Shown here in pieces: positions 7,798 through 47,852 of a stretch of DNA of 64,000 bases (the stretch's first letter is position 1; every line of letters starts with the position of its first letter). A program made the translations under genes and the position numbers. Origin of the DNA: an uncultured Candidatus Binatia bacterium (GTDB lineage Bacteria; Desulfobacterota; Binatia; UBA9968; JAJDTQ01). A model generated the notes under the pieces. That model was not told the origin of the DNA. It made no database searches and saw only the letters and a list, made by a program, of their open reading frames with translations. The stretch spans positions 3,552,001-3,616,000 of the forward strand of contig OZ243916.1 of NCBI GenBank assembly GCA_965213675.1. The letters run 5' to 3'.

Positions 7798-7958
7798 TGT
7801 GGTGTCTGGTTAATTCGGGTCATAATCTGCGGGTCTTTTTCGCCGTCGGCTGCGTTGCTCTTCCTCGCGTGGTACACGCCACTGCTCGTCATCGCGCCTT
7901 GCCGACAACAAAAAATCCTCCGCAGATTATGACCCGAATTAACCAGACACCACACTAG
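7794..7958. mobile_element. MITE / large palindromic element, copy 1 (165 bp, 39-bp perfect terminal IRs bounded by CTAG)
   Basis: CTAGTGTGGTGTCTGGTTAATTCGGGTCATAATCTGCGG (7794-7832) is the exact reverse complement of 7920-7958; second copy at 38159-38316. Confidence 0.85.
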
Positions 7959-35788: not shown

Positions 35789-37858
35789 TTACCCCTTCAC
35801 CGTGATGATCAGGTTCCTGTAATCGTCCACCCGCGCCTGCTGCTCGGGGTGGATCACCGTGGTGGTGTCCATCTGCTCCACCACCGCGGGGCCTGCCAGC
35901 GTGTGCCCCGGTTCCAGGCGGTCGCGGTCGTAGATGGCGCAATCCCGGAAGCCCAGGTCACGGCCGAAGTAGATGCGCCGTTCTCCGGTACGGGCTTGGT
36001 CCACGCTCGCTCCGGTGGCCGTGAACGGCGACAGCCGGGTCTGTGGCACGCGCCCCTCGGACACCAGCCGCACACTCACCAGCTCCACCGGCTCGGACTC
36101 GGCCTTGTGGCCGTGGGCCTGTTCGTGGACCTCGTGGAAGCGCTGCTGCGCCAGCTCCATGTCCTCGGGCTTCAGCGGCGGGTACGGGCAGGGCACGGTC
36201 AACTCGTAGCCCTGCCCGGCGTAGCGCAGGTCCAGGTAGGGCGTCAGCACGATGTCCCCGTCCGAGAACCCCTCTCCGGACAACTCCTCGCGCGCCTGCC
36301 CCATGAGCTGGTCGAACAAGGTGTTGATGTCGTCCGGCTCCAGCTCCTGCATGGGCGCCAGCTTGGAGCGCACGTGGTCGTGCTTCACGTCCGACATGAG
36401 CAGCCCCAGGGCGGAATTGACTCCCGGCGTGAGCGGCACCAGCAGCGTCGGGATGCCCAGGTCCAGCGCCAGCCGGCCGGCGTGCATGGGGCCGGCGCCG
36501 CCGAAGGCCACCAGGGTGAACTCCCGGATGTCGTAGCCGCGCTGCGACGACACCGCCTTGATGGCTTCCTCCATCTTGACGTTGATGATCCGGAGAACGC
36601 CGTCCGCGGCCTCGTGGAGGCTTAGTCCCAACGGCTTGGCTATTTTCTCCTCCACCAGCGATTCTGCCTTGGCCTTGTCGAGGGTGAGGCGCCCGCCGAG
36701 GAAGTGGTCGGGGTCCAGCACCCCCAGGATGACGTTGGCGTCGGTGACGGTGGCATTTTCGCCGCCCCGGTCGTAGCAGATGGGGCCGGGGTCGGCGCCG
36801 GCGCTGTCGGGTCCCACCTGGAGCGCCCCCACCGAGTCGATGCGCGCGATGGTGCCGCCGCCCGCGCTCACCGTGTGGATATCCAGCATGGGCAGGCTGA
36901 TGGGCCGCTGGCTGATGCGTCCCTGGGTGGTGACCACCGGGCGGCCCTGGTGGATCAGCGCCACGTCGCAGCTGGTGCCGCCCATGTCGAAGGTGATGAT
37001 GTTGTCGATGCCGACCTTGCCGCTGGCGCCAAGGGACGAGATGACGCCCCCCGCGGGGCCGGAGAGCACCGTGGCCACGGGGATGCGCGCCGAAGTCTTG
37101 AAGGTGGAGACGCCGCCGTTGGACTGCATGATATAGAGCTGCGGCGTAGCCACGCCCATCTCCCGCAGGCGGTCCTCCAGAAGACCCAGGTAGCGGCTCA
37201 TCACGGGCGCGATGTATGCGTTGATCACCGTGGTGCTCATGCGGTAGAACTCGCGGATCTGCGGCAGCACTTCGCACGAGAGCGACAGGCTCGCCTCCGG
37301 GAATTCCTCGGCCATGATCTTCTTGATGGCCAGTTCGTGGTCCAGATTCAGGAAGGAAAAGAGAAAGCACACGGCCACGGACTCGACGCCCTTGGCCTTG
37401 AGCCGGCGGACCGCTTCCGCCGCCTGCTCCGGGTCCACCGGCGTCAGCGCGTTGCCCTGGAAATCCACCCGTTCGCGGACCTCCTCGGTGGTGTAAGGAG
37501 TGGCCAGCAGGCGGGGTTTCTCGAAGAAGAGGTCGTAGGTGACCGGACCGTAGCCCCGGCTCTGCTCCATGACCTCGTAGATGCCGCGGAAACCCTCGGT
37601 GACCAGCAGCCCGGTGACCGCCCCCTTCTCCTCCAGCAGCGCGTTGGTGCCCACGGTGGTGCCGTGGGAGAAGAAGCTGACGTCCCCGGCCGGGACGCCC
37701 TGGTCGAGCAGCTCCTGGACCCCGTTGAGCACCGCCTGGAACGGCTCCCTGGGGGTCGACGGCACCTTGGTGATGCTGATCTCGCCGCTGTCCTCGTTGA
37801 AAAAAACGAAGTCGGAGAAGGTTCCTCCGGTGTCCACCGCTACTCGATATCGCGCCAT
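35789..37858 (-). CDS. Hydantoinase A / oxoprolinase family ATP-binding subunit
   Basis: VDTGGTFSD, HGTTVGTNALLE, SGPAGG, DMGGTSCD, SAGADPGP, AFGGAGPMH; true start ATG 37858. Confidence 0.92.
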   Translation of the reverse strand: MARYRVAVDTGGTFSDFVFFNEDSGEISITKVPSTPREPFQAVLNGVQELLDQGVPAGDVSFFSHGTTVGTNALLEEKGAVTGLLVTEGFRGIYEVMEQSRGYGPVTYDLFFEKPRLLATPYTTEEVRERVDFQGNALTPVDPEQAAEAVRRLKAKGVESVAVCFLFSFLNLDHELAIKKIMAEEFPEASLSLSCEVLPQIREFYRMSTTVINAYIAPVMSRYLGLLEDRLREMGVATPQLYIMQSNGGVSTFKTSARIPVATVLSGPAGGVISSLGASGKVGIDNIITFDMGGTSCDVALIHQGRPVVTTQGRISQRPISLPMLDIHTVSAGGGTIARIDSVGALQVGPDSAGADPGPICYDRGGENATVTDANVILGVLDPDHFLGGRLTLDKAKAESLVEEKIAKPLGLSLHEAADGVLRIINVKMEEAIKAVSSQRGYDIREFTLVAFGGAGPMHAGRLALDLGIPTLLVPLTPGVNSALGLLMSDVKHDHVRSKLAPMQELEPDDINTLFDQLMGQAREELSGEGFSDGDIVLTPYLDLRYAGQGYELTVPCPYPPLKPEDMELAQQRFHEVHEQAHGHKAESEPVELVSVRLVSEGRVPQTRLSPFTATGASVDQARTGERRIYFGRDLGFRDCAIYDRDRLEPGHTLAGPAVVEQMDTTTVIHPEQQARVDDYRNLIITVKG

Positions 37859-37899
37859 CGGAGTTGCGTTAACACGATCCGTCAGGGGGTTCAAATCGG

Positions 37900-38157
37900 G
37901 CGGTCCTGGCCGCGCTTGGCGTAGGAACCGCCGCACACGCGGCATTTGAACAGGCCCGACAGCAGGTAGCGGGGACGATGGGTGCTGTTGAGGCGGTTGG
38001 CATGAGCCGCGCGCGTGGCCGCGATGGACGTGGCGTATTTCTCGAAGATTTCCCCCTGCCGGGCCTTCGCGGCCTGCCACAGTTCGTCGTCCACGATGCG
38101 AAGCTCGGGAACCTCGGCGACGATCCACTCCTCGGGCGGGTTGAGGCGCGCGACCCG
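37900..38157 (-). pseudogene. Internal fragment of a large serine recombinase (recombinase domain end plus Zn ribbon start)
   Basis: RVARLNPPEEWIVAEVPELRIVDDELWQAAKARQ...RPRYLLSGLFKCRVCGG; truncated at both ends. Confidence 0.8.
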
Positions 38158-38158
38158 C

Positions 38159-38316
38159 TGGTGTCTGGATAATTCGCGTCATAAACTGCGGGTCTTTTTC
38201 GCCGTCGGCTGCGTTGCTCTTCCTCGCGTGGTACCCGCCACTGCTCGTCATCGCGCCTTGCCGACGACAAAAAATCCTCCGCAGATTATGACGCGTATTA
38301 ACCAGACACCACACTA
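38159..38316. mobile_element. MITE copy 2 (left end truncated)
   Basis: Near-identical to 7800-7956; lacks left CTAGTG; ends ...CACACTA. Confidence 0.85.
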
Positions 38317-40884
38317 ACCGTCGGCGGCGGACAGGGCTCGCCGCAACAAGACGCACAGGCGGCGCAGGCTGAGACACCCGCCTGCGTCTCCGACGCCCTG
38401 CTGGCCGACGCCCAGAAGGCTGCGGGCGAGACCTGGCGGACGTCGCCGGGCCATGTCGAGCGCTGGAGCCGGGTGCTGGCCGCCTTCGGGGAGGAGAACA
38501 GCTACAGCAACCACCCGATGACCGTTGCCGAGGCGCAGGCGCAGGCGGACCGCGGCCTGCAGCGCTGGGCGCCGGTGGCGCCGGCGCTCCAATGCCTGGC
38601 GGCGGCACCGCAGGAACAGCCGGAACCGGCTGAGGTCCAGCCGGCCACGCCCGGCACGCCCGGCACCCCCGGACTGAGCCTCTCGGCGGGGTCCGCCGTG
38701 GAAGAGGGCGGTACTGCCACCTTCACCGTCAGGGCCGACCCGGCTCCGGCCTCCGACCTCACGGTCACCTGGACCGTCGCCCAGAGTGGCGAGTATCTGG
38801 CCGCGCCCGGCGCGGGCAGCCGGACGGTGGTGCTGACCGCAGGGGCTACCAGCGCCGACCTTTCGGTGGCGACAGTGGACGATGCGGCGGACGAGGCCGA
38901 CGGCTCGGTGTCCGTCACCCTCGGCACGGGCACGGGCTATACCGTGGCCACGGGCAAGGGCAGCGCCGCGGTGGCGGTGCGCGACAATGACGAGCCGGTG
39001 GTGAGCATCGCCGCCGGCAGCGGAGTGGCGGAAGGCGCCTCGGCGTCGTTCACGGTCTCGGCGAGCCCGGTGCCAGCCGCACCGCTCGACGTGACCCTGA
39101 CCGTCGGCCAGAGCGGCGACTTCGCCGCCTCGGGCGCGACCGGATCGCGGACGGTCACCATCCCGGTCACGGGCAGCGCCACCTTCGAGGTCACCACGGT
39201 GGATGACGGCACGGACGAGCCGGACGGCTCGATCACGGCAACTGTCGATACCGGCACGGGCTACACGGTGGCGGCATCGCCGGACAACGCGGCCACGGTG
39301 GCGGTGTCCGACAACGATGCGGCGTCCTCGGGTCCGACGATCTCGATTGCCGATGCCACGCTCAAGGAGAACGGAATAACGGGGAATTTCAAGGTGACGT
39401 TGAGCGAGCCGGTGGACTGGCCGGTCGTCGTCTACTACGCGACGCGGGATTCAACGCCGGTGTCGGCCGTGGCGGGCCAGGACTACCTGGCGTGGAAGCG
39501 GTCCTGGCGGCTGCGGGCCCGGTTCAGGCCGGGGCAGACGGAAACGCTGATCCACGTCCGCCTCTACAACGACAGCCATGACGAGGGTCCGGAGACCTTC
39601 GAGATGGTGCTGTTCGACGCGTCCGTGAACGGTCCGCCCGGGGTGTCGGTGTCGATTGCGGACGGGGTTGCCGTGGGCACCATCACCAACTCGGACCCGA
39701 TGCCGGCGGCATGGCTGGCGCGTTTCGGTCGCACGACGGCGGAACAGGCGCTGGACGGCATAGCCGGGCGCATCGCGGCGTCGCGCGACGCCGGGGTGCA
39801 GGGCACCATCGCCGGACAGGCGCTGGGCTTCGATCCCCGCTCCTCCGGCTCGCAGGCAGGCCCCGACGGATCGGTTGGCGCAGCGAGCGGGAATGCTGCC
39901 CCTGGCAGCCTGTCCGGCACTGGCCGGCTGGTGCAGACCGATGTCGCCCGCGGCCGTTTCGGCGCTGGCGGTGCGGGATCGGCATTGGGCCATGACACTC
40001 ATGGCTTCGCTTTCGGCAGCAGCGGGGCGCAGTCCTACTCGATGACGGCCCGGGAAGCCTTGCTGGGCAGCAGCTTCACGGCGACCGGGGAGAAGGACGG
40101 CATGGGCGGCAGCGTGGCCTTCTGGGGCCGGGCAGCGCAGTCGAGCTTCGACGGCCGCGAGGGGACGTTCTCGCTCGACGGCGAGGCCACCACGGCCATG
40201 CTGGGAGCCGACTATGGGCGCGGCAACTGGCTGGCCGGACTGGCCCTGATGCGGAGCAGCGGGGATGGCGGCTATGCCGACAGCGGGTCGGGGTCCGGGG
40301 CAGGCAACGGTACGGATTTCATGGGCTGCCCTCAACCTTCGGATGCCGAAGCGCGGAGGGTCGTGTGCAGCGGCGCCGTGCGGGAGGGCGATGGTGAGGT
40401 GGAGGCGTCGCTGACGGCGGCGGTTCCCTATGCCGCGCTCCGGGTCTCGGAGCGGCTGAAGCTCTGGGGCGCGGTGGGCTATGGCGCCGGCGACGTGACG
40501 CTCGAGCCGGAGGTAGGCGGTTCCCTCACCTCCGACATCTCCTGGACCATGGCGGCGGCTGGCCTGCGCGGCGACGTGATCGCGCCCCCGGCGGAAGGGT
40601 CGGGTCCCGCACTGGCGGTGACCTCGGACTCGCTCTGGGCGCGCACCAGCTCGGACAAGACCCACGAGCTGGCGGCGTCCGATTCCGACGTGACGCGCTT
40701 CCGGCTCGGTCTGGAGGGAAGCTGGAAGGCCGCGCTGGCGCGGGGCAGCCATGTGACGCCCAAGCTGGAGCTGGGCATGCGCCAGGACGGCGGCGATGCC
40801 GAGACCGGCTTCGGGGTGGAAGTCGGCGGCGGCCTGGCCTGGGTCAACCCGACCCTGGGCCTCTCCCTGGACCTTTCGGGCCGG
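38317..40884 (+). pseudogene. Truncated autotransporter-like adhesin: helical repeat, three Calx-beta-like domains and a partial C-terminal beta-barrel
   Basis: Open frame begins at the MITE edge with no start or signal peptide; TVDDxxDExDGSxxxTxxTGTGYTV repeats; MPAAWLARFGRT linker; barrel breaks after GLSLDLSGR. Confidence 0.75.
39557..40627 (+). repeat. ~1.07-kb direct repeat, copy A
   Basis: Matches 43751-44821 at offset 4194, about 15 substitutions by eye and no indels. Confidence 0.92.
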
Positions 40885-41045
40885 AAGTCACGACCCAGTG
40901 GTGAGGGGGGAACCGGGGGGATAGCCGATGGGGGGCGGCGGGAGACCGTGCTGGCCCAGATTCCTGATGAACCCGCGGCGGGGCCTTCATGGAACCGCCC
41001 CCGTGGCGCAGCATGCCGGAATGCCCGCAGTACCCGGCAGCCCTT

Positions 41046-41120
41046 TTGGCCCAGGCCACCCGCGCCACCCATCCTGACGCCACACTCGCCGACCTTTACG
41101 ATCCCGACTCCATGCCGCCA
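41046..41120 (+). pseudogene. Scrap of MmeI-like type IIL/IIG restriction-modification enzyme C-terminus
   Basis: LAQATRATHPDATLADLYDPDSMPP resembles the conserved ARxxHPxxTLADLYDPxxMP motif. Confidence 0.6.
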
Positions 41121-41211
41121 GCAGGCCTGATCGACGCCTGCGATTTGTCTACTATGGGAAAGGGAAAACAAGACGATGTTTTTCGTCCCTGCACGTTTCC
41201 GTTGGTTGGGC

Positions 41212-41610
41212 CTACACGAAGACCGAGGGTGAGACCCCAAAACGCTTTGATAAGGCGCGAATCTGCCTGACGTTCAGGTCCCGTTTACCGTTCAGAATCT
41301 CCGAAACGACCCCTTGGGACCCGATCTCCGGCAAGTCCGACTGGGTCAGATTGTGCTCTGCCATGAAGAATCGCAGCACATCCGCTCCTCCGCATTCCGG
41401 CATCGCGTGGTGTTGTTCCTCCCAGGCGTGCAGCACGGTGCCGAGCGTATCCAGCAGAGAATAGAGCGGATGCCGCTCATCGGTGCCTACCTCATCAAGG
41501 AGAGTATTGAGGTGCTCCACGGCCACATCATAATCCTGTTCGTTGCGAATCTTGAACAAGTCGCTCACGTGGGGCCAGGATCGCTGAATCTGTGGGCTTA
41601 TGGCATTCAT
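41212..41610 (-). CDS. higA: HigA-family antitoxin (HTH)
   Basis: IRNEQDYD, LTQSDLPEIGSQGVVSEILNGKRDLNVRQIRAL; ATGA overlap with toxin stop. Confidence 0.9.
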   Translation of the reverse strand: MNAISPQIQRSWPHVSDLFKIRNEQDYDVAVEHLNTLLDEVGTDERHPLYSLLDTLGTVLHAWEEQHHAMPECGGADVLRFFMAEHNLTQSDLPEIGSQGVVSEILNGKRDLNVRQIRALSKRFGVSPSVFV

Positions 41611-41894
41611 GTCATCCATCCTCCGCGGTCATAAGCTTGGTGCGTCAGTACGTGGCGAATGTACACCTTTCCCCGATTGAAGTGCAGGGATGCAATCAGA
41701 CGGTACTTGTTCCCGGCAATATTGAACACGACATACTCTCCAACCTTATCAGCCGAAGGAAACGTACGGCGTAGTGCCGTAAAGTTGCGAAATCGCGTTT
41801 GCCGCATAATTTTGAACCAGCGGCCCAGAGGCTCCTCACTGTCGCGATGCTGTACCCAAAACGCCTGAAGAGCTTTGCGCGAAATGATGTGCAC
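41607..41894 (-). CDS. higB: HigB-family mRNA interferase toxin
   Basis: (M)HIISRKAL...FPSADKVG..VVFNIAGNKYRLI...VYIRHVLTHQAYDRG; GTG start. Confidence 0.9.
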   Translation of the reverse strand: MHIISRKALQAFWVQHRDSEEPLGRWFKIMRQTRFRNFTALRRTFPSADKVGEYVVFNIAGNKYRLIASLHFNRGKVYIRHVLTHQAYDRGGWMT

Positions 41895-41900
41895 GAGATC

Positions 41901-41929
41901 AGCATATCTCAAGCCGAGATATACCGCAA
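41901..41929 (-). promoter_or_regulatory. higBA promoter with palindromic operator
   Basis: Minus-strand TTGCGG-17-TATGCT; ATATCTC-N5-GAGATAT (41904-41922) over spacer and -10; GTG begins 7 nt after the -10. Confidence 0.7.
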
Positions 41930-42247
41930 GAGGCTTGTCCCTCAGCATCTCTCTGCTGACGTCAAGGGATTGATCCATGTAACTCGACAAGAGGGAAGGA
42001 GGGCAGGAAGTTCTTTCGCGAGTTCCTTTGCTTCGCTCAGAACAAGGGTTTCGTTCGCTCCAATGTCGGAACGCTTGGAAAGCGTGTAGCCTGGAAATCC
42101 GGGCTATCACACACAGCGCGGGTTAGGATAAAGCAAGCAAAATCGGTGCCTTCATCTTGGTCCCGGGATCGCCACCCCCGTATTCAGGACCGATGATTAC
42201 AAAACCCCCTTCACGGTCTTTACTGTTCCTATAAACGTCTTTAAATT

Positions 42248-44984
42248 ATGGCCGCTATTGAGAGCCGCCTAAGCAAGACCCTCTCTACTATAATTCCCAA
42301 CTCCCGGGGACCGGTACATCGGCGACTCACCCTCCCGGGGCTGACCTTCGCCGTGATGGTGCTGGCGCTGGCCGGCACAGTCCCTGACGCTCACGCCCAA
42401 CAGAACGAGGTCTACTTCGCCACCGACACGATCCATGTGATCCCGGGCGAGAAATTGCAATTCACGCCAACCCTGCGCTACGCCGAATCCACCGATGTGT
42501 ATGTGCACATGAGGACGGTGGATCCGACCGAGAGTCTCAAAGGCTACGAGCCCGCCCGTTTCGGATACGGACACAACACCGGCAGAGACTACATTCCCAT
42601 TCTTGATAGACGGGCAGTCTGGATTGCTCCCGGAAATGACCAATTCGAAATACTGAATCCAACCACTATCTTGACCGGCGCCACCCCGCCGGCGATGGGG
42701 AGCCCCGGCAAATACTTCCATGTGGAGATCACGAAAGTCACCACTGACGGCCAGCCAGACAGCACCAAATTTCACCCCGAAGTGACCATCGGCACACCCC
42801 GACGTATCACGGTGTTCATCGACCACACCCGGCAGACCCGGCCCATGCCGCAGATTCTGCTCAGCAAGAATAACTGGCGTGTTGCCGAGCCGGCGCACGC
42901 CAGCTGCTCGGACAGCCATGTCGGTGATGAGAAGACATTCACTGACATCACGCTCGGCGACGGAACGCCGGGCACCAGAGTAGAGAAGGATTACGGCCCC
43001 GTGCTCACAACAGAGACCTACAAAGTCCAGCTCGACCGCACGCCCGGCCCGGGCAAGGTCGTGAGCGTGGAGATCTGGGAGCCGACCGATCTGGACCGGC
43101 CTGACGTGGGTAGATTCCATGAGAACGCGCGGATCCACGGCATCGGCTGGCCGCCGATCCGGCAAGGCAGGATCAGCATCGACAACAGTCCTGTCCTGAA
43201 CCAGGGTCAGCCCGTTGGAGAAAGGCGCCATCTCAACACCTACCTGACCTTCACCGACAAGAACTGGAACCAGACAAAGACGGTGACGGTGAACATCCAC
43301 TGCGCGCAGCATGACGTCAACAACCCGCTGCCGATCTGGCACTTCGCCTTCCGGCACGACACGCCCACATGGGGCCGCTCTTCGCACATGTACAACCGCA
43401 AGGGCGACAACAGCCGGGCCAATACCAGCTTCAAGATCGCCCAGGTCCGGGTGGCCGACAGTTCCGAGCCGCCCAAGATCGCCGGCAACCCCATGGGCAA
43501 TCTCGTCCTCGATCCCGACGCATCGGGCCATTTCGTCCTGTCCGATGATGGCGAAGACGGCTATGCGCACATCATCGGCCTGGATTTCCGCTGGAACAAC
43601 CCGGACAACTCGCACCACAACGACTATGACGCCGCCAACGGGAAGTTCGCCGGCTTCCGCGTCCGCCTGCGGACGGTGGACCCGCCCGGCCACGCGGTGC
43701 AGGAAGAATTCGTGCGCGCCGACTTCATCATTCCCCGTGACGACCCGACCTCCGCCTCTACAACGACAGCCATGACGAGGGTCCGGAGACCTTCGAGATG
43801 GTGCTGTTCGACGCGGACGTGAACGGTCCGCCCGGGGTGTCGGTGACGATTGCGGACGGAGTTGCCGTGGGCACCATCACCAACTCGGACCCGATGCCGG
43901 CGGCATGGCTGGCGCGTTTCGGTCGCACGACGGCGGAACAGGCGCTGGACGGCATAGCCGGGCGCATCGCGGCGTCGCGCGACGCCGGGGTGCAGGGCAC
44001 CATCGCCGGACAGGCGCTGGGCTTCGATCCCCGCTCCTCCGGCTCGCAGGCAGGCCCCGACGGATCGGTTGGCGCAGCGAGCGGGAATGCTGCCCCTGGC
44101 AGCCTGTCCGGCACTGGCCGGCTGGTGCAGACCGATGTCGCCCGCGGCCGTTTCGGCGCCGGCGGTGCGGGATCGGCATTGGGCCATGACACTCATGGCT
44201 TCGCTTTCGGCAGCAGCGGGGCGCAGTCCTACTCGATGACGGCCCGGGAAGCCTTGCTGGGCAGCAGCTTCACGGCGACCGGGGAGAAGGACGGCATGGG
44301 CGGCAGCGTGGCCTTCTGGGGCCGGGCAGCGCAGTCGAGCTTCGACGGCCGCGAGGGGACGTTCTCGCTCGACGGCGAGGCCACCACGGCCATGCTGGGA
44401 GCCGACTATGGGCGTGGCAACTGGCTGGCCGGAGTGGCCCTGATGCGGAGCAGCGGGGATGGCGGCTATGCCGACAGGGAATCGGGGTCCGGGGCAGGCA
44501 ACGGTACGGATGCCGTGGGCTGCCCTCAACCTTCGGATGCCGAAGCGCGGAGGGTCGTGTGCAGCGGCGCCGTGCGGGAGGGCGATGGTGAGGTGGAGGC
44601 GTCGCTGACGGCGGCGGTTCCCTATGCCGCGCTCCGGGTCTCGGAGCGGCTGAAGCTCTGGGGCGCGGTGGGCTATGGCGCCGGCGACGTGACGCTCGAG
44701 CCGGAGGTAGGCGGTTCCCTCACCTCCGACATCTCCTGGACCATGGCGGCGGCTGGCCTGCGCGGCGACGTGATCGCGCCCCCGGCGGAAGGATCGGGTC
44801 CCGCCCTGGCGGTGACCTCGGTCTCGCCACCGGCGCGCGCGACTACAGCGTGGGGTGGCGTCTCACGCCGGCGACCCGCGCCAACGCGCCCGATGTCTCC
44901 TTCGGGCTGAAGGGGACGCGCCGGGAGAGCAACTGGACGGAGCCGGAGCACACCATGGGGCTCGAAGCGACCGCGCGGTGGTAG
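42248..44984 (+). pseudogene. Second autotransporter-like surface protein, broken by two out-of-frame junctions
   Basis: Signal peptide ...AHA-QQ; Ig/Calx/FN3-like passenger to ~43750; shared block 43751-44821 in another frame; final strands GARDYSVGWRL...EATARW* (44820-44984) in a frame different from the shared block. Confidence 0.72.
43751..44821 (+). repeat. ~1.07-kb direct repeat, copy B
   Basis: See 39557-40627. Confidence 0.92.
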
Positions 44985-45566
44985 GCGTCGCGGTCGCCGA
45001 TGGCACGGGGGGTCAGCGGATGGGACGGCCTGCGGGCCTCGGGCTTCATCCGCAGGGGCAAGGCACATCGCGCGGCATGGAAGAAGCGTCCGCCGCAGCC
45101 CGGCCCTTGGTGCAACTCGCGGCCGAAGGCGGGGCCACGCTCTCGGACCTCCGCCTCGCCGACGGCACGCTGATGCTGAGGACCGAGCAGCCGGGCCGCT
45201 CGGTCCAGGCCCGCCTTCCGGCCGGCGCGCAAGGACGATGTTCAGGCAATATCGCGACATGGCCACCGGCGCATGAACGGCAATCGTCCCTTCCATCCTG
45301 AAGCCGAAACACCGCCACAGACCGACGGAAACGCGCTATAATACTCATCCTTGCGCAGGGCTCAGATATCGACGACAAGCGAGTGTCGGGCTCGGCTGTA
45401 GCGAGCCGGAGAGGGCCCCGGGGCTGCCGTTTCGGGGCGGGTTTAGGCGCCGTCGGGCCGCTTGACACTGCACTCGGTTTCCCGATAGAGCAGGGCCATA
45501 ATCGTTTCGCGGCCACGCCGGCCCCCGCCTGTAGCGGGCCACCGGCTGGGCCTGAGAGGAGCATTC

Positions 45567-46337
45567 ATGATCGAAGGGTTGCAGGGCAAGGTGGTGATCA
45601 TCACGGGCGGCGGCCACGGCATCGGCAAGGCCTACGCCGAGGGGTTTACCAAGTCCGGTTCCAGGGTGGTGGTGGCGGACATCGACGGCGAGGCGGCGGA
45701 AAAGGTGGCGGCGGACCTCGGGAAGCTGAGCGAGGCCGGCTCCATGGCGGTGACCGTGGACGTGTCCGACGATGAGTCCACCAACCAGATGGTGGCCAGG
45801 ACCGTCGAGCGTTTCGGCCAGGTGGATGTGCTGGTGAACAACGCGTCGATCTTCGCCACCATTCCCATGAGCCGCGGCCGCATCGAGGAGATCAGCATCG
45901 AAGAGTGGGACAAGCTCATGTCGGTGAACCTCAAGGGCGTGTTCCTCTGCTGCCGTGCGGTGCTGCCGCAGATGCGCCGGCAGAAGTCCGGCAAGATCAT
46001 CAACATCGCCTCGGGGACCGCGCTCTACGGCCCTCCCGGACGCATCCACTACGTCGCCTCCAAGGCCGGCGTGATGGGTTTCAGTCGCACCCTGGCGCGG
46101 GAGGTGGGCGAGGACAACATTCAGGTCAACATCCTGTGCCCGGGCTCGACCCTGTCCGAGGAGAATCCCACCGAGGATATCCTCAAGATGCGCCAGAGCA
46201 ATATCGGCTCGCGCGCCCTCAAGCGGGTCCAGGTTCCCCAGGATCTGGTGGGCGGGGTGCTGTTCATGGCCTCCCCCCTGGCCGACTTCATGACCGGCCA
46301 GACCCTGGTGGTGGACGGCGGCCAGAACATGCATTGA
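45567..46337 (+). CDS. Short-chain dehydrogenase/reductase
   Basis: TGGGHGIG, NNAS, YVASK, VDGG; GAGGAG RBS. Confidence 0.93.
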   Translation: MIEGLQGKVVIITGGGHGIGKAYAEGFTKSGSRVVVADIDGEAAEKVAADLGKLSEAGSMAVTVDVSDDESTNQMVARTVERFGQVDVLVNNASIFATIPMSRGRIEEISIEEWDKLMSVNLKGVFLCCRAVLPQMRRQKSGKIINIASGTALYGPPGRIHYVASKAGVMGFSRTLAREVGEDNIQVNILCPGSTLSEENPTEDILKMRQSNIGSRALKRVQVPQDLVGGVLFMASPLADFMTGQTLVVDGGQNMH

Positions 46338-46403
46338 CGGCGCCCCGCTCTGTCATTGATACGAACACCAATCACCACGACTCACCGCCGTTCAGGGCTC
46401 ACC

Positions 46404-46429
46404 GTCATTCCCGCGGCAGCGGGAATCCA
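46404..46429 (+). repeat. REP-like palindrome
   Basis: GTCATTCCCGCGGCAGCGGGAATCCA. Confidence 0.75.
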
Positions 46430-46451
46430 TAGAGAGATGGAGCGGTCGCGC

Positions 46452-47852
46452 ATGGCCGGGTACGCCAACCACCAGCACACGGACACCATCAGCCGGCTGG
46501 TTGAACTGCTCGGCCGCACCGCCGTCCGCACCGACCCCGCCGAGCTGGATGCGCATGCCTGGGACGCCTTGAGCCCCAGCCGCATCCACCCCGCGCACCC
46601 CATCGTTCCCGTTCATCCGCTGTGCGTCTGCACCCCGGCCAACACGTCCGAGGTGCAGGCCGTGGTGCGGCTGGCCAACCGCCAACGGCTCCCGCTGGTG
46701 CCCTACGGCGGCGGCTCGGGGCTCATGGGCGCGGCTGCCACGCTTGTACCGGGCATCGTGGTGGATCTGAGGCGGATGAATGCCGTCGTGGAGATCGATG
46801 CGGACTCGCTCACGGCCCGGGTCCAGGCCGGAGCCGTGCTGGAGGCCGTCGACGCGGCACTGCGTGGCGCCGGCCTCATGCTGGGTCACGACCCCTGGAC
46901 CCTGCCGGTGGCCACGGTGGGCGGCACGGTCTCCACCGACAGTCTCGGTTATCGAGGCGGCAAGTACGGCTCCATGGGCAACCAGGTGCTGGGGTTGGAG
47001 GCGGTGTTGCCCCAAGGAGAAGTGTGCCGTACCCCCGCCGTGAGCAAACGCTCCACCGGCCTCGATTTCAAGCACCTGTTCATCGGCGGCGAAGGCTGCT
47101 TCGGCGTCCTCACGGAGGTGACGCTGCGGGTCTACCCGGTTCCGGAGACGCGCGTCCTCCATGCCCTGCAGTTCGGTTCCTTCGCTGCCGGCTTCGACGC
47201 GGTATGCGACCTGACTCGAGCCGGCTGCCAGCCGATTCTCCTGGACTATGGCGATGAGACAGCCGATCCGGATGGAACGTCGATCCTGTATCTGGGCTTC
47301 GAAGGGAGCGCGGCTCTGACAGCCGCGGAAGAGGGCGTGGCGCTGGATGCCTGCGCGCGCCGCGGCGCCCGGAAACTCCCGCGCGAGCGGGCGGAGCGCT
47401 TCTGGGGTGAACGTCACGCCGCGGCCCGGCGTTTTGCCATGAACCGAAGCGAACGCCGCACGCGCGGCCTCGACGGCATGCACCAGGATTGGGTCCATGT
47501 GGCCCTGCCGGCATCGCGGGTGCTGACCTTCCGGCAGGAGGCCATCGCCCTGGCAGCGGCGCGGGGCGTGCGCTTCCGCGAGAGCGGGCTCTGGACCGGC
47601 CCGGAACTGTTCTCCCTGCGCCTCGCGACGGAGGGCGGCGAACAGGCACGGCGTGAGCTGGGCGACACGGTGCGGGCGCTCCTCGACCACGTCCCCGATT
47701 ACGACGGGTCCGTGGAATACTGCCACGGCGTCGGCGTCAAACTGGCTCCCCTGATGGCCCGCGAGCATGCCGGGGGCCTGGCTGTGATGCGTTCCCTCAA
47801 GCGCTGCCTCGATCCCCAGGGCATCATGAACCCGGGCAAGTTGGCCCTGTGA
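46452..47852 (+). CDS. FAD-binding oxidoreductase (GlcD / alkyl-DHAP-synthase-like)
   Basis: PYGGGSG, ATVGG, GGEGCFGVLTEVTL, CHGVG, DPQGIMNPGK. Confidence 0.88.
   Translation: MAGYANHQHTDTISRLVELLGRTAVRTDPAELDAHAWDALSPSRIHPAHPIVPVHPLCVCTPANTSEVQAVVRLANRQRLPLVPYGGGSGLMGAAATLVPGIVVDLRRMNAVVEIDADSLTARVQAGAVLEAVDAALRGAGLMLGHDPWTLPVATVGGTVSTDSLGYRGGKYGSMGNQVLGLEAVLPQGEVCRTPAVSKRSTGLDFKHLFIGGEGCFGVLTEVTLRVYPVPETRVLHALQFGSFAAGFDAVCDLTRAGCQPILLDYGDETADPDGTSILYLGFEGSAALTAAEEGVALDACARRGARKLPRERAERFWGERHAAARRFAMNRSERRTRGLDGMHQDWVHVALPASRVLTFRQEAIALAAARGVRFRESGLWTGPELFSLRLATEGGEQARRELGDTVRALLDHVPDYDGSVEYCHGVGVKLAPLMAREHAGGLAVMRSLKRCLDPQGIMNPGKLAL

Follow-up and report, generated by a model that had tools for sequence, protein, structure and literature searches.

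Introduction

Silent-cassette antigenic variation is known from the pilS/pilE genes of Neisseria, and the sca autotransporters of Rickettsia and the pmp autotransporters of Chlamydia form families of many paralogs with a conserved barrel and variable passengers, among which truncated or fragmented copies occur. Silent cassettes are also reported to underlie antigenic variation through MgPar / mgpB-mgpC recombination in Mycoplasma genitalium (PMC2169797, PMC7549776), and the HMW1A and HMW2A adhesins of non-typeable Haemophilus influenzae are reported to have 7-bp tandem repeats upstream of the gene (PMC8262952, PMC2424069). Our literature search found no work on Calx-beta autotransporters in sponges, and of the papers found on pseudogenes or gene conversion among autotransporter paralogs none described a locus such as the one reported here. 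This locus lies in a 64,000-nt stretch (the window) of contig OZ243916.1 from an uncultured Candidatus Binatia bacterium, in which two adhesin-like reading frames share a near-identical direct repeat.

An initial annotation had described the two frames as adhesin genes and suggested that they might form a reservoir whose passenger modules are joined by recombination to a common display barrel, with a higBA toxin-antitoxin module as stabiliser; the decay of a large paralog family was its simpler alternative. We find that the locus is very probably the wreck of a small genomic island that holds dead paralog fragments, and not a working variation system. Coordinates are positions in the window unless prefixed C1, the contig numbering in which the window spans C1:3552001-3616000; the source genome (4.53 Mb) is called G000, the two units with their block copies 1 and 2 are gene 1 (w1) and gene 2 (w2), and p305, p294, p241, p2410, p79 and p113 are paralogs elsewhere in G000.

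Results

Both adhesin genes at the locus are broken

Gene 1 (38317-40885, forward strand) is an internal fragment of a family gene and consists of a helical segment, LapA-like repeats, a Calx-beta domain (PF03160; E 3.7e-09, residues 295-389 of the frame beginning at 38473), a linker (MPAAWLARFGRT) and approximately the first 394 codons of the C-terminal domain, here termed the anchor. The frame 38473-41130 encodes 885 aa and is open without a start from 38302, giving an open length of 942 codons. The fragment has neither a native start nor a signal peptide (all signal-peptide calls here were made by eye), and its anchor is without the final ~440 bp, covering residues 1-394 of a 540-aa query of linker plus anchor (tblastn). 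Its homology to other family members begins at 38317, immediately 3' of a miniature inverted-repeat transposable element (MITE), and its homology to p305 and to the corresponding gene in the related genome G012 ends at 40885, ~440 bp short of the stop, where the frame enters unrelated sequence. Compared to the G012 gene, 2.0 kb is missing upstream, comprising the promoter region, the signal peptide, the N-terminal module (N-module), the leucine-rich repeats (LRR) and the PKD domain. By blastn, the remaining sequence has 94% identity with the 3' part of p305 and 96% with p294.

Gene 2 is broken twice. Its N-module (42248-43747, forward strand) has a signal-peptide-like start, a Calx-beta-like domain and an immunoglobulin (Ig)-like beta-sandwich domain. 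The open reading frame (ORF) starting at 42248 (42248-43822, 524 aa) continues into the block for 24 codons in the wrong frame before a stop at 43822, and the ORF in the frame of the block (43798-44910, 370 aa) is open from 43741. As the two frames differ in phase, the join at 43748 is out of frame, and the abrupt out-of-frame junction reported in the initial annotation is thereby confirmed. Downstream, a deletion of ~525 bp at ~44827, between short imperfect direct repeats, shifts the frame again and joins the block to the final ~185 bp of a gene of the family (44817-45000, forward strand), a piece 95% identical to p305 (C1 3055856-3056040) and 96% identical to the end of the G012 gene. The anchor of gene 2 consequently covers residues 1-317 and 476-540 of the query with a frameshift. 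Beyond it lies a 3' flank (45001-45270, forward strand) that is common only to the truncated p294 (C1 2938446-2938621; 168 of 176 aligned pairs identical, with large indels) and absent from G012 at this locus. Neither unit in the window is one polypeptide with a signal peptide, a passenger and a complete barrel, and the description of the locus as two adhesin genes cannot be upheld: the first lacks start, signal peptide and ~440 bp of anchor, and the anchor of the second carries a frameshifting internal deletion.

The N-terminal part of gene 2 (42248-43750) had no match in Pfam, is unique in G000 and has no match in 27 other same-genus genomes. Its 501-aa translation matched 33 of 1.84 billion representative proteins, the best being a 1525-aa protein (P0004) with 66% identity between query residues 19-497 and P0004 residues 65-509. 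Downstream of this region P0004 continues in the order LRR repeats, sequence like the start of gene 1, LapA-like repeats, Calx-beta, MPAAWLARFGRT and anchor. Since the N-module matches a protein that bears both linker and anchor, gene 2 is a family member without its middle; relative to P0004, ~2.3 kb is absent between the N-module and the end of Calx-beta. In a predicted model of the N-terminal part (predicted local distance difference test, pLDDT, 60.5) the first domain resembles Calx-beta (NCX1 CBD1; Z 9.2, root-mean-square deviation (rmsd) 3.0, 102 residues aligned) and the second is Ig-like (MSP/PapD-like folds, Z 9.0-9.4). Judged from this model, the passengers of genes 1 and 2 are not of unrelated kind. 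The signal-peptide-like start and the Ig-like domain assigned earlier to gene 2 were thus recovered; the first domain appears Calx-beta-like instead, and the view that the two passengers are unrelated did not hold.

A decayed island between two conserved genes

The locus is flanked on the left by a hydantoinase/oxoprolinase gene (35789-37855, reverse strand, the start near 37855 being an estimate; Pfam Hydantoinase_A E 6.4e-97, with Hydant_A_N and Hydant_A_C), which is 90-93% identical in same-genus genomes, and on the right by a conserved short-chain dehydrogenase (SDR) gene (45567-46337, forward strand; PF00106, E 1.1e-59). We compared 12 kb around the locus with 25 related genomes, 15 of which were counted as same-genus. 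The spacing between the hydantoinase and SDR genes was at most 400 bp in 11 of these 15 and 0.76-2.2 kb in three, with an island-size insert in G012. An empty site in one genome (G015) joins 37901 to 45402, which defines the island as 37902-45401, 7.5 kb between the two genes. The sequences at both island ends are identical in G012 and G000.

G012 is the most similar genome (flanks 92-93% identical), and its island contains part of a recombinase relic and one intact frame of 1704 codons, with a signal-peptide-like start, LRR_8, PKD-like, LapA-like and Calx-beta domains, the MPAAWLARFGRT linker and a complete C-terminal domain. Positions 38317-40883 of the window match the 3' 2.57 kb of this gene with 92.5% identity, positions 44817-44985 match its last 169 bp (96%), and from 45271 onward the window matches the G012 downstream flank, so that 45271-45401 (forward strand) is the right end of the ancestral island common to both genomes.

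At the left end lies the C-terminal part of a large serine recombinase gene (37894-38158, reverse strand), a relic of ~90 codons cut by the MITE and matching PF07508 over 37894-38178 (E 2.3e-4; 21.8 bits against a cut-off of 21.1). The recombinase relic placed earlier at the left edge of the adhesin region is therefore real, although it lies just outside that region, with the MITE separating it from gene 1. It is common to G012 up to 38081, and G000 retains 77 bp more (38082-38158), which indicates that each lineage lost a different part of the left end of the ancestral island.

The MITE (38159-38316) is 158 bp long, has terminal inverted repeats of ~25 bp and abuts the 5' cut of gene 1. It gave 215 blastn matches in G000, 95 of them of at least 150 bp, with copies 92-98% identical; its inverted ends were seen as reverse-strand matches of 38260-38316. 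These inverted ends together with the 95 long copies identify the element as a MITE. Copies also lie at 7800-7957 of the window and beside p305 (C1 3058691-3058848), with a diverged copy beside p294 (C1 2938301-2938435), and among the matches listed at least eight other same-genus genomes have copies at 83-98% identity.

The paralog p294 has an open frame of 1203 codons and sits in an island of its own (7.2 kb, ~C1 2938268-2945474) that is absent from G012. Upstream of p294, a TrwC relaxase fragment and an ORF with a PIN domain (a putative toxin gene) are found in this island, and downstream of it the diverged MITE, making p294 a second family gene within decayed mobile-element DNA that has a putative toxin gene.

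From these comparisons we infer the following order of events. The ancestor of G000 and G012 would have gained, between the hydantoinase and SDR genes, an island with a serine recombinase and one complete giant surface-protein gene that has stayed intact in G012; members of this very large family begin with a variable N-module and continue through LRR, PKD-like, LapA-like and Calx-beta domains and a helical linker to a barrel of ~480 aa that appears to be of autotransporter type. In G000, loss of 2 kb at the 5' end, with promoter, signal peptide, N-module and LRR, would have come first, and the MITE now sits at the break (38316/38317). The last ~440 bp would then have been replaced by 4.4 kb of other mobile DNA (40886-45270), possibly through illegitimate recombination, which would have brought in a possible restriction-enzyme tail relic, higBA and another gene of the family together with the 3' flank of that gene. 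This second gene has a different N-module and is disabled by the out-of-frame junction at 43748 and the out-of-frame deletion of ~525 bp in its barrel. The stretch left in both remnants is the 1.07-kb block, kept 98-99% identical to its paralogs by gene conversion. In this account higBA would have been addiction cargo of the inserted DNA rather than the stabiliser of a cassette system.

The repeat block and its borders

Direct base comparison of 39557-40627 with 43751-44821 (offset 4194) gave exactly 15 substitutions and no indels, reproducing every figure given for this direct repeat in the initial annotation, and at the same offset the flanks outside the repeat had an identity of only ~0.2-0.4 per 50-base window. 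A repeat search and blastn widened the repeat to 39554-40644 (block copy 1, forward strand) and 43748-44838 (block copy 2, forward strand), 98.1% identical. The block begins within the Calx-beta match of gene 1, holds the MPAAWLARFGRT linker in both copies and ends after the first ~320 codons of the anchor. The content first ascribed to it was accordingly correct for the end of the Calx-beta domain, the linker and part of the anchor, with the qualification that no Pfam or NCBIfam autotransporter model matches the last of these.

There are four near-identical copies of the block in G000 (100, 98.6, 98.2 and 97.9%), the two outside the window being in p305 (C1 3054255-3055325, 98.2%) and p294 (C1 2939973-2938903, 97.9%); one further match stood at 79% and many were weaker. 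Only one of the four lies in an intact gene, that of p305, with an open frame of 1968 codons. Elsewhere in G000, ten frames of 1721-2613 codons share the C-terminal motif with a terminal W, and tblastn with the 540-aa query found 19 loci.

A genome search for passengers varying at a common breakpoint was the check proposed with the swapping hypothesis, and it turned out against it. Homology in gene 1, p305 and p294 extends upstream of the position equivalent to 43748 (blastn and alignment), and in gene 1 and p305 it extends beyond the position equivalent to 44827, so that both borders of the block are private to copy 2. The left border is the out-of-frame junction that omits ~2.3 kb of a P0004-like architecture; the right border is a microhomology deletion. 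The repeat search found no recombination sites, inverted or direct, other than the block itself.

Programmed swapping at the locus, in which a recombinase moves passengers onto the barrel block and higBA stabilises the arrangement, would account for the recombinase relic, for a direct repeat that flanks a toxin-antitoxin pair and for two different N-terminal contexts; it also gains from the finding that the gene 2 N-module occurs with the anchor in P0004 and without anchor-like sequence in three other proteins (P0005-P0007). Against this, what is left of the recombinase is a ~90-codon relic cut by the MITE, neither anchor at the locus amounts to a whole barrel, the junction at 43748 breaks the reading frame, and the borders of the block occur in gene 2 only, with no recombination sites found besides the block itself. 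We regard such swapping as extremely unlikely. A reservoir of passengers on a shared, higBA-stabilised barrel is contradicted by the lack of a complete barrel and of any in-frame join of a signal-peptide passenger, and the two remnants belong to one family, in which either kind of N-terminal module is found among intact members. The decay of a large paralog family, which the initial annotation had named as the alternative, is the reading that the synteny, the intact G012 gene and the broken copies support.

The N-module of gene 2 also fronts P0005-P0007 (850-1699 aa), whose C-terminal parts, judged by eye, are without anchor or linker sequence. This module thus occurs with differing C-terminal architectures and has been shuffled between them; module shuffling in the superfamily is real, but it is evolutionary rather than programmed. 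The intact family members point to where the natural border lies. They share everything from LRR to anchor (G012 residues 443-1704 and p305 residues 672-1968, 78% identity; P0004 residues 600-1492 and G012 residues 441-1353, 67%) and differ in their N-modules, which places the natural evolutionary module border before the LRR and not at 43748.

Integration of the second gene by a single Campbell-type crossover through the block was considered and rejected, because the copy with the deletion would then come first and be followed by the complete barrel, and the order seen is the reverse. Copy 1 in addition extends 240 bp further into the barrel before the insert.

Gene conversion among family copies

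Within the block, pairwise comparison of the G000 copies gave 15-32 differing sites, compared to 48-58 between these copies and G012. Seven variant sites pair gene 1 and p294 against gene 2 and p305, two pair genes 1 and 2 against p305, p294 and G012, and two pair p305 and G012. These splits are mutually incompatible, indicating that family copies exchange sequence by gene conversion. Another paralog, p241, is 82% identical overall and has a 169-bp run identical with p305 at the position of 39454-39622. Gene conversion is thus the reason why two pseudogene pieces are 98.6% alike, and no selection on the block is needed. The paralog p294 has a 104-bp patch identical to 40717-40820 of gene 1. 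Gene 2 and p294 have nearly the same left deletion breakpoint, a common 8-base scar motif and a common 3' flank, and on this ground share some history. A molecular clock based on that flank was attempted and dropped, because the 86% identity reported by blastn counted gaps and the aligned pairs (168/176) are no less alike than the block.

Exchange of this kind among gene 1, gene 2, p294 and p305 is also what a reservoir of silent cassettes would produce, in which the promoterless gene 1, gene 2 and p294 donate segments to p305 by non-reciprocal gene conversion and so vary its passenger. The set has the right outline, with one intact and three partial copies at 94-98% identity, incompatible mosaic sites among exactly these four, and differences from p305 in a passenger segment of ~750 bp beside a near-identical 3' part. 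The partial copies retain open frames, and the family has contingency-type repeat tracts. The presence of one full-length gene with partial copies is, however, a structural resemblance only, as concerted evolution of paralogs yields the same pattern without function and open frames persist by chance in DNA of 70% GC. The copies sit in decayed islands with relaxase, recombinase and restriction-enzyme relics and toxin-antitoxin genes. Instead of conserved flanks common to them all, they are bounded by a MITE and by the scars of deletions: no conserved border was found among the MITE junction at 38316/38317, the unrelated insert at 40885/40886, the junction at 43748 and the microhomology deletions. 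The p294 island, and gene 2 with its insert, lack G012 counterparts and the gene 2 N-module is found nowhere in G012, so the donor set is not conserved even between close relatives. A donor role for these copies is thus improbable.

Read data and contig integrity

Read data were available as short Logan contigs from four public runs of one study, in which ~0.55-0.62 of the sampled words were present. The unique insert (40883-42355) was recovered with no differences in one run, at a word depth of 14-30 that equals the depth of the flanking single-copy genes; the family sequence reached word depths of hundreds to thousands.

These data bear on whether the contig misjoins two family loci through the near-identical block. 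Such an error could be suspected from an estimated contamination of 8% in the genome bin, from family sequence being 100- to 600-fold deeper in words than the unique flanks in the metagenome runs and from the lack of listed contig pieces that bridge a junction. The contig is nevertheless 3.97 Mb long despite 95 full-length MITE copies, the position of gene 1 and both island ends agree with G012, and the unique insert occurs without differences at the depth of its single-copy neighbours. The junctions 40885/40886, 43747/43748 and 45270/45271 moreover lie outside repeated sequence, so repeat-induced misjoining would not create them. An assembly artefact is accordingly very unlikely.

Several observations weigh against a decayed island as the explanation of the locus, or at least against its simplest form. 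Among the listed contig pieces, none spans 38316/38317, 40885/40886, 43747/43748, 44827 or 45270/45271, and coverage of the unique insert by these pieces sets in at 40883-40912, exactly where the break lies. Because of the additional 77 bp of recombinase relic, a single simple deletion from a G012-like state cannot have produced G000. What gene 2 and p294 have in common shows that copying between loci was more tangled than a three-step account. Gene 1 and p294 have retained open frames of considerable length (942 and 1203 codons), and their differences from p305 are concentrated within ~750 bp at the start of the passenger, as those of donor cassettes would be. With these points included, a wrecked island with dead fragments remains by far the most probable explanation. 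Tandem pseudogene remnants of one adhesin family in a decayed island are an ordinary finding, one that removes the notion of a shuffling cassette. The homogenisation of paralogs by gene conversion, dead copies included, matters for assembly and for the reading of strain variation in metagenomes.

The anchor domain

The anchor of ~480 aa (C1:3054401-3056020 in p305) is common to at least 2,509 giant proteins, the number of relatives of the 540-aa query at E <= 0.001 among 8,000 scored candidates. The best 120 relatives covered the query completely at 67-94% identity; none of the 120 has a precomputed PF03797 match or a name given by its source. The anchor of p305 (527 aa) matched no Pfam family at E up to 10, reached 9.9 bits with TIGR01414 of NCBIfam (E 0.34, cut-off 16) and, when compared by sequence with solved structures, returned only chance-level rows for ribosomal protein S5 (E 0.06-0.13). 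As neither Pfam nor NCBIfam has a model of the anchor, the annotation of these giant surface proteins currently comes only from the Calx-beta or LRR domains in their passengers.

Structure prediction gave a more specific picture. An AlphaFold2 model built from 11 sequences (pLDDT 55.7) has a helix at residues 2-25 followed by ~18 strands. Foldseek with this model returned outer-membrane barrels only, including the beta-domains of BrkA and Hbp, and the top four VIA-align matches were the translocators of AIDA-I, NalP, Hbp and EstA (Z 16.0-16.8, 242-249 residues, rmsd 4.0-5.0). These alignments start at the linker helix and cover model residues 1-449 only, and CymA followed with Z 15.4, ~1.4 below the best. 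Among the Atlas language-model neighbours of the anchor, 29 of 30 were PF03797 clusters (score 0.96). A helical linker with a C-terminal outer-membrane barrel is thus predicted, on a low-confidence model and with a small margin over other barrels, and the anchor looks like a divergent, enlarged type Va-like autotransporter barrel that falls outside the curated models and would serve its proteins in the manner of an autotransporter anchor. Of the two Pfam families that the initial annotation had proposed to look for, Calx-beta is present (PF03160, in gene 1) and Autotransporter is not, with the predicted fold favouring an autotransporter barrel.

The insert and higBA

The 4.4 kb inserted from 40886 (40886-45270) hold an MmeI_C tail match, higA, higB and the N-terminal part of gene 2. 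The first is a possible relic of the tail of an MmeI-type restriction-modification gene (40989-41130, forward strand) that falls just below threshold (PF20467 MmeI_C; E 1e-05, 26.1 bits against a cut-off of 27). Metagenome contigs have extra depth over 40908-41191 and one of them diverges after 40984, suggesting that this restriction-enzyme relic also occurs in other contexts in the samples.

The higBA pair was correctly described as intact and lying between the block copies. The higB toxin gene (41607-41894, reverse strand, probable GTG start at 41894; 95 aa; PF09907 HigB_toxin, E 1.8e-27) precedes a higA-type antitoxin gene (41212-41619, reverse strand; 135 aa, helix-turn-helix (HTH); PF01381 HTH_3, E 3.8e-06), and the two intact ORFs overlap by 13 bases (41607-41619). 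Judging by its sequence context, higBA is probably cargo of a mobile element. GC content drops to 52-60% from ~41000, at the restriction-enzyme relic, and is 52-63% over 41000-43400 compared to 66-75% in family sequence, a hint that the gene 2 module is of foreign origin, although low GC could also be a trait of N-modules; low GC as proof of a foreign module was dropped for this reason.

Tandem repeat tracts at other adhesin genes

A search of G000 for perfect tandem repeats (unit 4-12 bp, at least five copies) found only five, all outside the window (C1:3050133-3050220, 2407385-2407640, 800358-800717, 1134042-1134105 and 3713837-3713991). Each is at the 5' end of a gene for a giant secreted adhesin-type protein, a few bases 3' of a conserved promoter-like box that includes a -35-type hexamer, and consists of 8-45 copies of an 8-bp or 5-bp unit. 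Four belong to the anchor family: p305 (8-bp unit, 11 copies), p2410 (32 copies), p79 (45 copies) and p113 (another 8-bp unit, eight copies). G012 has ~21 copies of the p305-type unit at one locus compared to 45, 32 and 11 at three G000 loci that may or may not be orthologous to it, and no run of five of this unit occurs in the other 26 same-genus genomes. Positions 36000-47000 of the window contain no tandem repeat tract, and the window also lacks the promoter-like box seen in the paralogs with repeats.

The five tracts look like classical contingency loci; they are candidate slipped-strand contingency tracts and a better lead to surface variation than the block. Surface variation in two layers, with donor conversion into p305 and octanucleotide tracts setting the expression of paralogs, is conceivable and in our judgement unlikely.

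Discussion

Compared to known systems, the locus and its family share much with autotransporters. As in the type Va autotransporters AIDA-I, NalP, Hbp and EstA, family members have a signal peptide, a long beta-rich passenger, a helical linker and a C-terminal barrel with an aromatic end. The anchor differs in its size, with ~480 aa, ~18 predicted strands and two low-complexity loops as opposed to ~280 aa and 12 strands, and in lying outside PF03797 and below the TIGR01414 cut-off. At the level of the genome, the family is like the sca and pmp families in its many paralogs per genome, conserved barrel, variable passengers and occasional broken copies. It differs from them in falling outside the Pfam autotransporter models, in its more than 2,509 members and in having fragments that lie in mobile-element islands next to MITEs.

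Like MgPar and pilS/pilE, the family has truncated, promoterless adhesin copies elsewhere in the genome that exchange sequence with a full-length gene. Unlike in those systems, no conserved cassette borders were found, the copies are not conserved between close relatives, and they bear frameshifting deletions in the very part that would need to be shared. The higBA pair shows nothing unusual for a type II module, with the toxin gene first, a 13-base overlap with an HTH antitoxin gene and both ORFs intact, and is set here in low-GC inserted DNA. The tandem repeat tracts recall HMW1A and HMW2A in that short perfect repeats stand between a promoter-like box and the start of a giant adhesin gene; unit length, organism and protein family differ. 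The tracts give a starting point for testing whether surface display is phase-variable in this lineage.

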